64,000 nt of DNA from Pseudogymnoascus verrucosus (Eukaryota), in assembly GCA_001662655.1 (NCBI GenBank), contig KV460222.1, one strand, 5' to 3'. Positions within the stretch are counted from its first letter, which is position 1, and every line of letters begins with the position of its first letter. Under the pieces are notes generated by a model. It was not told the DNA's origin. It ran no database searches and worked only from the letters and a program-made list of their open reading frames with translations. Of this stretch, positions 57,390-64,000 are shown piece by piece. The translations under genes were made by a program, and so were the position numbers.

Positions 57390-60300
57390 ATGACTATCAA
57401 TAGACCTACTGGAACCATGAACTCGGTAAGTTTCTTTGCCCCTTCCCATTCCGGCGTGAATAAGCTCCGTTGCTAACATCTGTTCCTTCCAGGCTCGTGG
57501 GACTCGTTTCGGGGACTTCCCGTCTACCGCTGGACGAAATAATAATATAGACGACCAGCAGCCCACACAAAATACTACACTTGGCCAAGGCTTTGGTACA
57601 AATAATACTTGGAAAGCCCACGGAGGAATCTGGGGTAACGGTAATGCTATTGGAAGTGGATATAGCGTTGGAAAGAGGGACGCCTCGCGCGCTAGAGGTG
57701 TGTTTATTTGCCCCGTATCTCCTGATTCAGACCCTGACAATTGCCTCATAGTTATTGATGATGATGACTTGGCTGCCCCAAGTGGCTCGGGGGCACTAGC
57801 CGCCTCCTCCGAGGCCGACCCATGGGGGACTCGCAACAATGGACCCTGGAATCCAGTTGACCCCACATCGCCGAACCACAGTGGAGAGACATCCCCAAGC
57901 CGTCACCGGGGGAGCAATGCGAGCGCGGCCGCCAACGGCCTGCTCTCGGAAGCACAGAACACATCGCCGTACCTGGCCACGTCGAGGCCGGCCATCGGAC
58001 AGGGCCCGGGAATGAACCACCGCCCCATGTCGAAGAGCAACCTCGACCCAGCGTCGGGGGCGTTCAAGTACCCATACAGCTCGGTTAGCTTTGGCGACAG
58101 CAGCGAGCAGGGTGGCTTGCAGGCGATTAATGGCGGATTTGACTTACAGGATGGATTCATGTATGATCAACGCCGTGAAATTGGCTCGGGCTACAGAAGC
58201 ACGCAAGGAGGTGCCTCGCGTGAGCCGAGTCTGCCACCCTCGAGGCGTCCTGAGACTGCCTCGGGTGCGGCGACCAACTCTTCGATATTTGGCCAGGTCC
58301 CGTATTCGGCATTCGGCCATACCCCACAGAACTCTTTACATATTCAGAAGCCCAGCTTGACCGGCAGGACCCAGTCGTTCGGATCGGCAAGCAATGGGCG
58401 GAGCTACAATACCGGCTCGGACAGGTCGCAGGATGTGGATGCCCATTACACTCGTGGCACCTTGCTCGACAAAAGCCTCCAGGGTGCGCTTACCGACGCG
58501 GTGAGCGCTATCGAACAGCCTCGAGTGTCTCCAACCACATATCCGGAGTATAATGGACAGCAATCACAGCCAAATGGACAACATATAATGTGGGACGAGA
58601 ATTCGATGCACAAACGGAACAGCTACTTCGGAGGCAGCTACGGTGATGGTGCCTTCTCGAACCAACTGAATTCGAGGAGGCCCTCGCGAGCCGGTGAGTT
58701 GGATGGCTTGTCGGCGCTGGCTGACCGCCCGAGCCAGCCGATAAGCCCACGGTTTTATAACGCAAGTGGAGTGATCAGTGCAGAGCTCAACGCGTACGCC
58801 AACGCCAAGGCGCAACATCTGCAGGGGCTCTCTGAAATTGAGCGCGGGCTCCAGAGGCTGGAGCTTGGGCAGCACCAGCAACAGGCTGGATTCTATAATC
58901 CCCAGGCGATGTACAACCCCCACTTCCAGGCACAATACCAGACGCAGCAGTGGGACTTCGGACCACAGTCATTCCGCGGGGCCCCGCAGGGCTTCGCGCC
59001 TTACGCGGTCCAGATGCCTTCTTACGCTCCTGTCTCGGTGCCCAGGGGCCCTGCCCGGGACCAAGATATCGGCCATGGCGTGAGGAGTTTGCTGTTGGAG
59101 GAGTTTAGAAACAACGCCAAGTCGAACACGAGGCAGTATGAGCTGAAGAACATTTACGGCCACGTCGTCGAATTCAGCGGTGACCAGCACGGCTCGAGGT
59201 TCATCCAAATGAAGCTCGAGACTGCCAACAGTGATGAGAAGGAGCAGATCTTTAGAGAGATTCAGCCAAATGCGTTGCAGCTGATGACTGATGTCTTTGG
59301 CAACTATGTCATCCAGAAGCTCTTTGAGCACGGAAACCAGATTCAGAAGAAGATACTGGCCGAAATCATGAAGAACCACGTCATCGAGCTCTCGCTGCAG
59401 ATGTACGGCTGCCGCGTCGTACAGAAGGCGCTCGAGCACGTTCTCGCCGACCAGCAGGCCGAGCTCGTAAAAGAGCTCCAGGCCGACGTGCTGAAGTGTG
59501 TCAAGGACCAGAACGGCAACCACGTGATCCAGAAGGCTATCGAGAGATGCCCGACGGAACAGGTCCAGTTCATCCTCGACGCCTTCCGTATGCAAGTGCA
59601 TACGCTCGCGACGCACCCGTACGGCTGCCGCGTCATCCAGCGCATGCTCGAGTACTGCACGCCTCCTGACCAGGCGTCGGTGTTGAAGGAGCTATTCGCG
59701 TGCGCGCAGATGCTGATCATCGACCAGTACGGTAACTACGTCGTGCAGCACGTTATTCAGCACGGCAAGCCGGAGGACCAGGCGAAGCTGATCTCGATGG
59801 TTACAAACCAGGTCCTGACGCTGTCGAAGCACAAGTTTGCGTCGAATGTCGTGGAGCGCAGCATCTCGTGCGGAACGACGGAGCAGAGGCAGACGATCGT
59901 GGCGAAAATAGTGGCGCTGGAGAGTGATGGGAGTAGCCCGCTGCAGCTGATGATGAAGGATCAGTATGGAAACTATGTTATTCGTAAGTCATCCCTCGTC
60001 CTCCCATTACTCATACCCCGACCCTTCCCCTATAGTAAAGCAACTAACACTCCTCTCCAGAAAAACTCCTCGGCCAACTCCAGGGCGCTGAGCGCGACGC
60101 CTTCGTCGAGGACATCAAGCCGCAGCTCCTGCAGCTCAAGAAGTACAACTACGGCAAGCAGATCGCCGCCATCGAGAAGCTCATCTTCGTCGCTCCCACC
60201 GGACCCAGCACCAGCTTGCACCGCCAAACCGCCAGCAACGCATCCGCTGCGCCCGCTTATGGCCGTGGAGCAGCACCACCCCAGGGACCGGCGATCACGC

Positions 60301-60506
60301 TCGACGTCAGCTCCGTGGCGCCGACGCCCATGCTCACTATGGAGCAGAATAGCCCCGAGAGCAGCAACCTGCCCAGCGCCACTGGATCGACTGTCGATGA
60401 GTCGGGCGATGTCGGTGGCAGCTCTGTGAAGGAGACTGACGTGCCTGAAGTGCAGATTGAGAGCGAGACTTCGTCGCTCGACACGGAATCGACTATTAGG
60501 TGTTAG
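57390..60506 (+). CDS. PUF3: Pumilio-family RNA-binding protein, Puf3/Pumilio type (4 coding exons)
   Basis: Eight PUF repeats with recognition residues SRFIQ, NYVIQ, CRVVQ, NHVIQ, CRVIQ, NYVVQ, SNVVE, NYVIQ (the UGUANAUA code). In-frame ATGs at 57390/57417; last intron 59984-60060. Confidence 0.92.
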
Positions 60507-62540
60507 GTTTTTACATTTTTATTTCTTCTTTTTGCACACAGAGGATCGGTGGTGTCGAAAATGGGAATTAAAAATGGGTTGGAACGATGTGTGGGGGATA
60601 CTGGTGCTTGTGTCTATTTGGGGCCCCAAAAAGTTGTTTTTTGTGGTTTTCTCCTGGTGCCGTTCTTGCTTTTTGAATCCCCATGGTGGGGGAAGAGGGG
60701 GGTTTATATCTATGGGCTCGGCTTTGCTTTTGGGGAGTGATTATAATTTGTGTTTCAAAGCGGGGAAATAGGATGGGAAAGGGTGACTTATAAAAAAACC
60801 GGTGTGGGGTCATTATTAAGGGGGTGGGTGGGGTAAATGGGGGGGATAATGAGGGGTATAGGGAGTGTTTGTTGTTTTTTGTTCAAATTGTTTTCTTGCT
60901 GCTTGTTGGTTTTATTGTGGTTTTCCATCTTGGCTGCTTTGTTCGTATGGGAGAAGGCCGGGGGATACAGACGCCTTTTTAGGGGATTGCTTCTTCTTCT
61001 GTCCTTTTTTGGGGGTTGGAATTTGCTGGGGGGTGTTTTTGATTTTGGTTTTGATAACTCTTTTTTGGGAGGGTGGAGATGATTAATGGAATGGGATGGG
61101 ATGTTTATCGGGGGAGGGTATGAACAGGGGCTTTGGATCTTTCTGGATGCGTGGTGCGAATGCTTGCTATGCAATGCGATGCGAGTCTGGGGGCGGGGCA
61201 GATGATGGAGCGTGATATGAGCGGTTAATGAATGTATACACTGGAACGCAGCAGCAGTTGGGGTTTTATTGTGCTTTCTCTGGTTTGAATCTTGTGAGCT
61301 GGGTCTGGGTCTGGGTCACTAGACTGAACTGGGCTTATTTGAGGTTTGGGCTGATGAAAGCGTGGGACTGTGACTTACTGACTGACTGGCTGATTCTGGT
61401 GCTCTTTTCTGATGCTGTTTGTTTACTGTGGGGGATTTGGGGGTTGGGGATAGATGGATGGGATGGGATGGGATAGGATGGGAGGGGGGTTTTTGTATGC
61501 TACGGCTAGATGGAAAGATTGCTGTGTTTACTCTCTGCGTTTTGTGTGTGTGTTGTGTATGTCATTGTGATTGTGCCTGTGCTTTGTAATGTGCTGTGCC
61601 CGTGCCTGTGCCTGTGCCGTGTTTTCCAAACATGAAGGTCTACGATGATACACACCTAATCGTGGTCGGAAGCAAAGTGCGTTTCGCGAGATTTTACATC
61701 GTAAATGTGTCAAAAGTCGGAACTTCTTCATTTTTCTATACCTTTAATATAAGCCTATTTTACGGACTATTTTTAGTAATTAATAACTCTATAGTTTTAT
61801 AAAAATTTAAATACTTCTAGTGTAATAGTTTATATATGTTTTTTATTAAAAATTAATTCTACTACATTTCATTTCTGTCTTTTTATTACCCTTAACTCAC
61901 ATTATAGGTACTAGAAAAAAATCAGGTACCTGCTATATCAGCCGTCTTATTTGAGGCAAAATTTCCGGGGCACCTGCTATGGATGTTAAAGGGCCTTTCT
62001 AATGGACCATGCCTTAGTTGCCGCTGCGTCAAGAAGACGGGTTGACACAATCCCAGGCATAGACCAGGCCACAGAGCAGGTAGAGCAACTGCTAGATTCG
62101 CTCAGCCTTGTTAATTGGCTTCTTAAATGAGTCGCCGGGCCGCCACATCCACGGATCCACCTAGTATGGTTCTAACAGTGCATTGCGAAGTAACTACACG
62201 ATCTTCTTACAATACGGTAATGGGTACCTGTCTGGCTCATGAATCAGATAGGATAATATATGATAGCTATAGTTGGTTCTAGATACAGTCGCTTGCAAAA
62301 TTGGCTTCCCGTCCTTTGTCTCAGCTGCAGGGAATTCAGGCTACTGTACTCGGTGTAACGTCCACTTGATTTAATTCGATGTTAAGCGGATCCAGTAGAC
62401 TACCCATACATGAATATTGATGCCTAGATTAGAGTACCAATTTTAAAGAATGAGGCTGTGAGCATCTTGCATTTTCAGAACGCAACAACAGATACCTAAA
62501 TCTCATATGCTGAAGTTTGCATGCTGTAGGACCTTCGAAG

Positions 62541-63706
62541 ATGGTTAGTGATATACCCAAGATGCTCCGACTTACGGATGTTGCCGTGGCTAGCAAGAAC
62601 TTACCCCGCTTTAGTCTCTTAACCAGGTATACCCCGAGAACAATCCGGATGCTAGTAAAGCTGCCAAAGTCGAGTGAGTATGCCTCCTATAATGATTGGT
62701 AGCCAATATACTAACAATCTGGTGTGTAGTATTATCTTAGTTCACGGCCTGAATCCCAAAAGTAAGGACGATGAAGCACATGCGTTGAATACCTGGACCG
62801 AGAATGGCAGACTCTGGCCTAAGGACGATCTACCAAAGAGGCTCCCTGATGCACGAATATCTCTCTATGTATATGATTCATCAGCAGTTTATGGTGGTAG
62901 CCAGGCAACTTTTGCCGACAAGGCAAATGAGCTCCTGGAGACCATTAGATGCGACCGGGAGGACTGGGAGGGGAGGCCTCTCATTCTCATGGGACATAGC
63001 CTCGGTGGTATTTTGATTGAGCAAGCCTTGATAAATGCTCGACAAAATGAGACCTATCAGCATATTTATGACGCAACGTATGATCTTATCTACCTGTAAT
63101 ACTTCTAAGTACTGACAGAGAACCCTAGGGCGTGCCTGGCCTTTTTCGGAACTCCCCATGAAGGTGGTTCAGGAGGGATGGTTACCGCGGGGAAGACAGC
63201 TGCAAATGTGGCTTTATGGCTAGGATTTCAAAAGGGGGACAACATTATTGAGACCTTGGACAAGGGTTCTATGTTCACGGATATCCTCAAAGACCACTTT
63301 CGGCAGCAATTTGAGAGTTACCGGATGGTATCTTTCTGGGGTGACAAAGACACAGTATGTTCTACCTCGCGTAATGAGTAACGGTGTAAGACCTCATAAT
63401 TGACTAAAATTTACTAATTGCCCCTTGACTTAGATTGTCTCAAGAGAGAGCTCTAAATTTGGGCTCGCTGGGGGTCGTGAGCGAATCGTTGAGTTGAAAG
63501 CAGATCATCACGGAGTTGCAGCTTTTGGCCACACTACGAAGGATGAAGGTAACCTGAAAAAGGTAACAAGTAATGTGAAATGGTTGTATGATGAGGCCCT
63601 GAAACTGGGTATGTTGGAATCACTCACCTCCCCTCCTAAGGGTATTGTGGCAGATCCTGACAAGGATGCTCTGCTCCGAAAGAGACTGGAAGCCCTTAGA
63701 AACTGA
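62541..63706 (+). CDS. SesB-like/DUF676 alpha/beta hydrolase, short form (a spliced long form probably continues past the window end)
   Basis: IILVHGL, LWPKDDLP..LPDARI, RPLILMGHSLGGILI (GxSxG), FFGTPH, ADHH. Start inferred as ATG followed directly by an intron at 62544-62614. Confidence 0.8.
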
Positions 63707-64000
63707 TGAATTAGAGTAGTGTTGTCCTTTTTTATTAAGCTAGCGCTACTGAATTTAATTATTCATATGTGATAGATGTGCCCTAGAACTAATTTGGTTC
63801 TAGTTGACAAGATTCAGAGCCATCTTGAACACTCAAGGGTATGTACTACTTAGAGTTCTTAGCACCAACTTCGTCACTAACAGTGCAAACTATTAGGCAA
63901 ATCCTAGACTGCAACAAAACGGTATAGCATTCACAATCAATCTCATTTTACTATTTCTGATTACGAGGCAGCCATGCAAAAAACTCACTGCATCGTACCC

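Follow-up and report, generated by a model that had tools for sequence, protein, structure and literature searches.

Fungal NOD-like receptors (NLRs) have been catalogued by the domain architecture of single gene models, each locus being assumed to make one protein. In the survey of Dyrka et al. (2014, PMC4986451), the four N-terminal domains annotated most often, at about 20% each, include the sesB-like domain, and the sesB-like/NB-ARC/TPR architecture is listed. In plants, TIR-only proteins arise through intron retention, at RPS4, and through premature intronic polyadenylation (Parker et al. 2021, PMC8116057), and in the NACHT-ANK (nank) genes of the fungus Tuber melanosporum numerous alternatively spliced micro-exons of 3 nucleotides (nt) diversify the C-terminal recognition repeats (Iotti et al. 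2012, as cited in PMC4986451 and PMC9815663). We analysed a 64,000-nt stretch of Pseudogymnoascus verrucosus DNA (assembly GCA_001662655.1, contig KV460222.1; hereafter the window), the 3′ end of which carries, on the plus strand, what is probably the 5′ part of a sesB-like hydrolase/NB-ARC/TPR NLR gene. We favour, with moderate confidence, a reading in which the junction between the effector and the nucleotide-binding oligomerisation domain (NOD) of this gene is a two-way switch, giving both the receptor and a free hydrolase.

Exons were defined by reading frames and then checked on RNA contigs of relatives. The last hydrolase-coding exon ends at 63608 as ...CTGAAACTGG, followed directly by GTATGT, and the donor G/GTATGT at 63609 that an earlier note, made from the letters alone, had placed inside this exon was confirmed to the base. 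If the donor is left unspliced, the frame reads 32 further residues to a TGA at 63704-63706, with a second in-frame TGA at 63707-63709, and the protein would have 302 amino acids (aa), in accordance with the distinct tail of ~32 aa predicted in that note. The three phase-compatible introns that it had proposed downstream (63609-63803, 63839-63896 and 63922-63971, referred to as introns 1, 2 and 3) were reproduced with phases 1, 0 and 1, and joining the exons by coordinate yielded the same frame, open to the window edge as ...EALKL/VDKIQSHLEHSR/ANPRLQQN/AMQKTHCIVP. Intron 1 measures 195 nt versus 50-79 nt in the six other introns of the gene, and its ACTAAT is located 13-18 nt ahead of the acceptor TAG. 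Skipping both micro-exons between these introns (35 + 25 = 60 nt) keeps the frame and skipping one alone breaks it; judged from the frame, a third isoform that skips both and lacks the linker is possible.

RNA evidence came from assembled contigs of relatives, mostly 95-99% alike, in four runs (X15, X17, X18 and X19) compared with 62400-64000 at an 85% likeness threshold, contig depth being not usable to compare forms. X15, X17 and X19 are taken as RNA-derived because they are spliced at the upstream introns; X18, unspliced across 63775-63922 and 62940-63090, looks like DNA and was rejected as RNA, adding sequence variants only. In X19, a soil metatranscriptome recorded as RNA, a contig joins 63608->63804, skipping 195 nt with GT..AG ends, and in X15, from a different study, a contig passes from 63449-63608 straight into 29 letters of micro-exon 1 (27/29 identical to the window, the two mismatches being those of X18 and X19 at 63816 and 63822). 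Past micro-exon 1, the spliced X19 contig holds 8 letters matching the start of micro-exon 2 and then adapter. Two studies thus show junction 1, and one of them gives weak evidence for junction 2. The same X19 run also holds the unspliced form: one contig (record 15) has its end precisely at 63608, the point at which spliced and unspliced contigs part, and two variant contigs (records 16 and 17) are colinear into intron 1, covering 63608-63707 and 63608-63692. Other contigs of this run join across the introns 62674-62729 and 63355-63433, which makes DNA carry-over an unlikely source of the intron-containing contigs. Spliced and intron-containing RNA are therefore both present in one library, X15 shows the spliced form only, and the long spliced contig of X17 stops at 63604, ahead of the donor. 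No RNA contig in the four runs covers 63708-63774 or 63923-64000, an absence that by itself proves nothing, and for want of cover at 63708-63774 intron retention is indistinguishable from termination inside intron 1.

Searching for longer proteins with the 115-aa exon returned 10 proteins, of which four come from Pseudogymnoascus genomes (P0001 to P0004; 98% identical over this exon) and one from Hymenoscyphus fraxineus (P0005; 90% identical). In all five, ...LY-x-EAL-x-L is followed by V-P-F/L...F-T-G-R and then by the Walker A sequence G-L-G-G-x-G-K, which bears out the expectation in the earlier note of a V-P-F...F-x-G-R motif ahead of an NB-ARC. Pfam scans covered three of the five relatives, P0002 and P0003 being classed by precomputed Pfam accessions only: P0004 matched NB-ARC (E-value 2.8e-10), TPR_10 (4.8e-72) and TPR_12 (1.5e-56), P0005 matched TPR_12 (1.5e-11) plus TPR_10, and P0001, a partial record, matched NB-ARC (5.7e-10) with no TPR at the 1e-5 cut-off. 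The relatives with the 98%-identical exon are accordingly classed as hydrolase-NB-ARC proteins, the majority of them bearing TPRs. The annotation of P0004 has the identical micro-exon pattern, EALKL / DDTITSRLEHSR / ANPRLQQN / VMPKTHCIVPFEKN..., its NB-ARC exon reading VMPKTHCIVPFEKNDRFTGRESEL...GLGGVGKT; the check suggested earlier, for the same layout in homologues, has been run and P0004 uses both micro-exons exactly. P0003, P0002 and P0001 begin the NB-ARC exon in the same way, and the first 9-10 residues of this exon in the window match all four, which continue VPFEKN..FTGR and GLGG(V/I)GKT. P0005 carries, at the place of micro-exon 1, a related and longer in-frame linker, VKNIQKRLD. Since P0004, with its 98%-identical hydrolase exon, is annotated in the same way, and since the first junction is found in RNA contigs of relatives from two studies, the splice pattern is more than chance. 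The N-terminal effector is thus joined in frame to a putative NOD, open through three introns, with junction 3 taken from annotation only, and an NB-ARC would follow in this genome beyond 64000. With five of five relatives reading into a Walker A, the same micro-exons in P0004 and the 63608->63804 joint in RNA, the fusion to a probable NB-ARC NLR put forward in the earlier note is supported.

The junction (63609-63971) is modelled four ways in the four annotated Pseudogymnoascus relatives: both micro-exons are used in P0004 and both skipped in P0003, and P0002 and P0001 each read through part of the intron, in different ways. Automated annotation clearly fails to treat the effector-NOD junction consistently, and NLR censuses built from such models therefore inherit errors there. 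P0001 and P0004 have nearly identical hydrolases, but the NB-ARCs that follow are 53% identical over the 651 positions aligned; P0001 has an insert of 24 residues after F-T-G-R, and its diverged NB-ARC resembles that of Letharia P0010. This comparison points to a recent swap of modules, located at the junction or immediately past it, so the type of NB-ARC downstream of the window cannot be assumed.

The 32-codon tail in the 5′ half of intron 1 looks like coding sequence. It was compared with L001, one locus obtained from a single metagenome scan, which has 86% aa identity in exon 2 and a contig end at the equivalent of 63762. Tail plus stop showed 84.2% nt identity with 0 gap columns (exons: 81-89%), 26 of the 32 residues were identical (exons: 83-89%), and the stop falls at the same codon. 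The other internal introns were 71-78% identical, with gap columns in two of three, the first intron of the gene reached 88% over aligned columns but with 27 gap columns, and the stretch after the stop (63710-63762, 53 nt) was 62% identical. GC content is likewise exon-like in the tail (0.50, versus 0.46-0.50 in exons) and falls to 0.32 after the stop (63710-63803), and P0011, an open reading frame (ORF) from another assembly and the one match of a near-length search, contains the tail with a one-codon in-frame insertion. No Pfam family covers the tail. In a fold model of a 90-aa query that includes the tail (mean predicted local distance difference test (pLDDT) score 70.6, predicted template modelling score (pTM) 0.39), which was used for the helix propensity of the tail only, residues 75-89 are predicted, at moderate confidence, to be helical (block pLDDT 72), and the tail end is predicted to form an amphipathic helix with L-x-x-R-L-x-x-L-R. 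The AT-rich stretch after the stop has motifs reminiscent of yeast terminator elements, which do not serve as evidence here.

Micro-exon 1 reads S-H-L-E-H-S-R in the window and S-R-L-E-H-S-R in X15, X18, X19 (63816 A>C, 63822 A>G) and P0004. The R-L-E-x-x-R spacing of the relatives weakly echoes the tail end, K-R-L-E-A-L-R, and R-L-[ED] is found just past the junction in P0005, P0036 and P0073; a similar short helix may be kept in both isoforms. Micro-exon 1 was also considered as a duplicate of the 3′ end of the tail, and by eye about 10/18 nt and 4/6 residues agree, which is not significant, and the duplication is retained as an idea only.

With the last exon and the tail together as query, a full HMMER search gave 73 cluster representatives, from which 11 long annotated proteins and 15 with a failed anchor pattern or <20 residues past the anchor were left out (remaining n = 47). 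The motif L[EQHYRA]xR[LMFIV]xxL was found in 24 of these 47 ORF-type fragments reading at least 20 aa past the anchor, and in 22 of the 24 it ends within 8 aa of the C-terminus, with a frequency of 0.2% in shuffled tails. Many HMMER matches owe their detection to the exon part by itself and were therefore not selected by the motif; an annotated 155-aa protein from a metagenome-assembled genome of a lichen fungus is among the matches, the others having come out of metagenomes and run assemblies. The donor codon encodes G, S, C or R (NGT codons) in 46 of 54 fragments, with E, M or K following in 42 of 54, which is what a conserved donor NGT-GAG/ATG/AAG-T (GTGAGT/GTATGT/GTAAGT) would give when translated by the ORF callers, the DNA at the donor having been read for the window and L001 only. 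The annotated long homologues lose similarity at the donor point, as read from their sequences. Both the donor and the read-through tail thus appear to be maintained, and conservation of the tail as coding sequence is supported down to relatives about 40-47% identical. A bolder and distinctly tentative extension would make this an ancient family-wide device, in which a conserved 5′ splice site overlaps an in-frame tail (...L-E-x-R-L-x-x-L-R, stop) in about half of the sesB-like sequences sampled, many loci encode both a free and an NLR-tethered hydrolase, the free form works with or restrains the receptor, and the intron serves as an exon-shuffling joint.

In the mechanism that we propose for the window, removal of intron 1 would let the micro-exons supply a 20-residue linker, by which the whole hydrolase domain, with its candidate Ser-Asp-His triad, would be joined in frame to the NB-ARC-TPR body as an all-in-one receptor. 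When the donor at 63608/9 is unused, either through intron retention or through termination in the intron, which in the latter case would occur within its AT-rich 3′ half, the 32 conserved codons would be read to the TGA and a free 302-aa hydrolase would result. By analogy with the general NLR model and with the role proposed for the sesB-like lipase in PMC4986451, the hydrolase of the receptor would be activated by NB-ARC oligomerisation after ligand sensing by the TPRs, and the free hydrolase could have its own function, e.g. as a partner or regulator of the receptor. Both proteins would then be made from the locus. The suggestion of the earlier note that alternative splicing or intronic polyadenylation yields a receptor and a free effector gains support from the two RNA forms in X19 and from tail conservation in near and distant relatives.

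It could be argued instead that the locus makes a single constitutive receptor, that the intron-containing RNAs are incompletely processed or unproductive and act at most as a dosage throttle via the early stop, and that the tail is a relic of an ancestral stand-alone hydrolase gene. Intron retention is generally the commonest splicing variant in fungi, and retained-intron mRNAs with early stops are often degraded and not translated. A number of our results lean the same way and count against a two-output locus. The tail is less tightly constrained than the exons: versus L001 it has 5 synonymous and 6 non-synonymous codon changes, whereas the three large exons have 58 and 34 between them. The close-relative variants listed are non-synonymous in 3/3 cases in the tail and in 2/2 in micro-exon 1, and the splice donor by itself already limits which residues can occupy the first two or three positions of the tail. 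The contigs show no poly(A) tail, the X19 contig ending at 63707 running into adapter and not into A's, and no annotated protein of ~300 aa ending in the tail was found among close relatives, where the search gave only the five NLR models; X15, moreover, shows only the spliced form. All RNA is from relatives, and the soil metatranscriptome X19 may mix strains or paralogues. Junction 3 and the continuity into the NB-ARC exon have no RNA contig support, lying where there is no cover. The NB-ARC that follows differs between relatives (P0001 versus P0004), the motif is missing from 23 of the 47 ORF-type relatives, and the fragments are known without genomic context, a downstream NOD being unproven for them. 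A relic or poison intron, however, would not keep aa conservation, a frame-preserving indel and a conserved stop down to about 40-47% identity; the GC content and nucleotide identity of the tail are exon-like, and X19 contigs enter intron 1 while contigs of that run join across two other introns. On balance, a single product appears unlikely.

Conservation of tail and stop would equally be expected of two neighbouring genes, namely a hydrolase gene ending at 63706 and an NB-ARC-TPR gene starting at the conserved Met 63975, with the spliced contigs as read-through chimeras and the fused annotations as artefacts. The NB-ARC exon does begin with x-M, both in the window and in 4/4 Pseudogymnoascus models, the four annotated relatives bridge the gap differently, and effector/NLR gene pairs are a known fungal layout. 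The gap between stop and ATG is only 268 nt, however, and is filled by the remainder of intron 1, two in-frame micro-exons and two introns with good splice signals. RNA contigs of two studies contain the joint from exon to micro-exon; micro-exon 1 has no ATG and continues the hydrolase frame in P0004, as does the longer linker of P0005; and the donor at the hydrolase end appears conserved across the family. We therefore regard a pair of separate genes as quite improbable, less probable still than a single product, and retain the two-way switch as the preferred reading.

Whichever way the junction is used, the whole hydrolase domain would be present in both isoforms. The GxSxG elbow was read directly in the sequence as G-H-S-L-G-G, and the candidate catalytic Asp and His are located in FWGDKDT and KADHH, the His being kept in 15 of the 15 rows of alignment A2 that cover the position; by analogy, both are likely members of the catalytic triad. 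In Pfam, the 115-aa exon alone matched Abhydrolase_6 (27.2 bits, cut-off 26.3), while DUF676, PGAP1 and Hydrolase_4 gave weak matches under their cut-offs, and DUF7570 matched residues 5-44 of the last exon only, also under its cut-off. Searching PDB sequences with P0005 yielded 16 matches, all in the TPR part, and no solved hydrolase relative. The label sesB-like is given on the basis of the hydrolase family, the position ahead of an NB-ARC and the published description; that such hydrolases are common N-terminal effectors of fungal NLRs, as the earlier note had stated, agrees with PMC4986451.

The features of the gene are collected in Table 1. In the relatives the 5′ untranslated region reaches upstream to at least about 62408. 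The start ATG is joined over 62544-62614 to TCTCTTAACCAG, X15 and X19 contigs reading ...CGAAGAT-G-TCTCTTAACC across this intron, and the product begins M-SLNQVYPE, as in P0005. Three relatives are annotated with an unspliced N-terminus (MVSD.PKMLR...) rather than with the ATG-to-SLNQVYPE splice, and in P0004 a GFA domain is fused to the upstream side; residues 1-74 of that protein find no match in the window.

Table 1. Features of the probable sesB-like hydrolase/NLR gene at the 3′ end of the window, with the evidence for each
Feature	Positions	Strand	Evidence
Exon 1, coding part (ATG only)	62541-62543	+	RNA contigs X15, X19; comparison with P0005
Coding exon (SLNQVYPENNPDASKAAKVD)	62615-62673	+	joint 62673->62730 (GT..AG) in X15, X19; tblastn matches of P0004, P0005
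Coding exon, alpha/beta-hydrolase core and nucleophile elbow G-H-S-L-G-G	62730-63077	+	joint 63077->63129 in X17
Coding exon, ending FWGDKDT	63129-63354	+	joint 63354->63434 in X19, X17; frame checked
Coding exon with K-A-D-H-H, ending at alternative 5′ splice site G/GTATGT	63434-63608	+	frame; X19 contig end at 63608
Alternative terminal segment, 32-aa tail (split Gly codon counted) and TGA 63704-63706; 5′ half of intron 1	63609-63706	+	frame; X19 contigs; L001
Intron 1, 195 nt, phase 1, GTATGT...ACTAAT...TAG; removed in the receptor isoform	63609-63803	+	X19, X15 joints
Micro-exon 1, 35 nt, V-DKIQSHLEHSR	63804-63838	+	spliced contigs of X19, X15
Intron 2, 58 nt, phase 0, GTATGT...CACTAAC...TAG	63839-63896	+	sequence; X19 continuation; P0004 annotation
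Micro-exon 2, 25 nt, ANPRLQQN and first base of next codon	63897-63921	+	identical ANPRLQQN in P0004; 8-letter RNA continuation
Intron 3, 50 nt, phase 1, weak donor GTATAG...CTGAT...CAG	63922-63971	+	sequence, frame and P0004 annotation only
Start (29 nt) of the exon that bears NB-ARC in relatives, (A)MQKTHCIVP..., cut by the window end	63972-64000	+	P0004, P0003, P0002, P0001

Upstream of this gene, an open frame of 989 aa (57460-60429, plus strand) carries repeated ...G-N-[YH]-V-I-Q-K... units in its C-terminal part, resembling those typical of Pumilio-family RNA-binding proteins. Between that frame and the hydrolase gene lie a G/T-rich low-complexity stretch with repeated GGGATG-like units (60430-61640) and a very AT-rich one (61700-61900).

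The NLR architecture described here is ordinary, and the fused model is already in public annotation (P0004). The overlap of a conserved effector-only tail with a splice donor that is conserved as well appears to be undescribed: searches of the open full-text literature and of passages in PMC4986451, PMC9815663 and PMC12258605 turned up neither an effector-only isoform nor this tail motif for any fungal NLR. Like the Podospora anserina Pa_2_10340 type (PMC4986451), the locus has an N-terminal lipase/esterase with GxSxG, followed in the closest relatives by an NB-ARC Walker A and TPR_10/TPR_12; unlike that type, the 5′ half of its junction intron is a conserved in-frame coding tail with a stop of its own. 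With the nank genes of Tuber it has in common very small exons in a fungal NLR gene that might be included variably, as the P0003 model skips both, but there are two micro-exons here, of 35 and 25 nt, they form the linker between effector and NOD, and variable inclusion was not observed. With plant NLRs (PMC8116057) it would share a full receptor and an N-terminal-only product from one locus, with the stop in an unspliced or terminated intron; it differs in being fungal, in having a hydrolase instead of a TIR, and in that the intronic tail is conserved as protein across distant relatives, and neither a poly(A) site nor a factor for 3′-end processing was identified for it.

If the conserved switch is real, some all-in-one receptors would also release their effector separately, as do plant TNL genes with TIR-only products, which bears on the dosage of NLR activity and on the relation of free to tethered effectors. 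An intron placed exactly at the module boundary would also explain in concrete terms how N-terminal domains can be shuffled between NODs, as has been documented. In the HET-S/NWD2 and SesB/het-eN (sigma motif) two-gene clusters, which Daskalov and colleagues are said to have described in 2012, the two genes are reportedly linked by short shared motifs. No amyloid motif common to the effector C-terminus and the NLR N-terminus was found here, the tail being charged and predicted helical and resembling micro-exon 1 only in R-L-E-x-x-R. As in those clusters, a free effector with a short conserved C-terminal motif would be encoded directly upstream of an NB-ARC repeat protein, with the difference that one transcription unit is involved here. 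Should the tentative family-wide device hold, it would represent a splice-encoded version of the two-gene effector/NLR clusters, and the same intron would lie behind the frequent swaps of effector and NOD modules, with P0001 and P0004 as an illustration.

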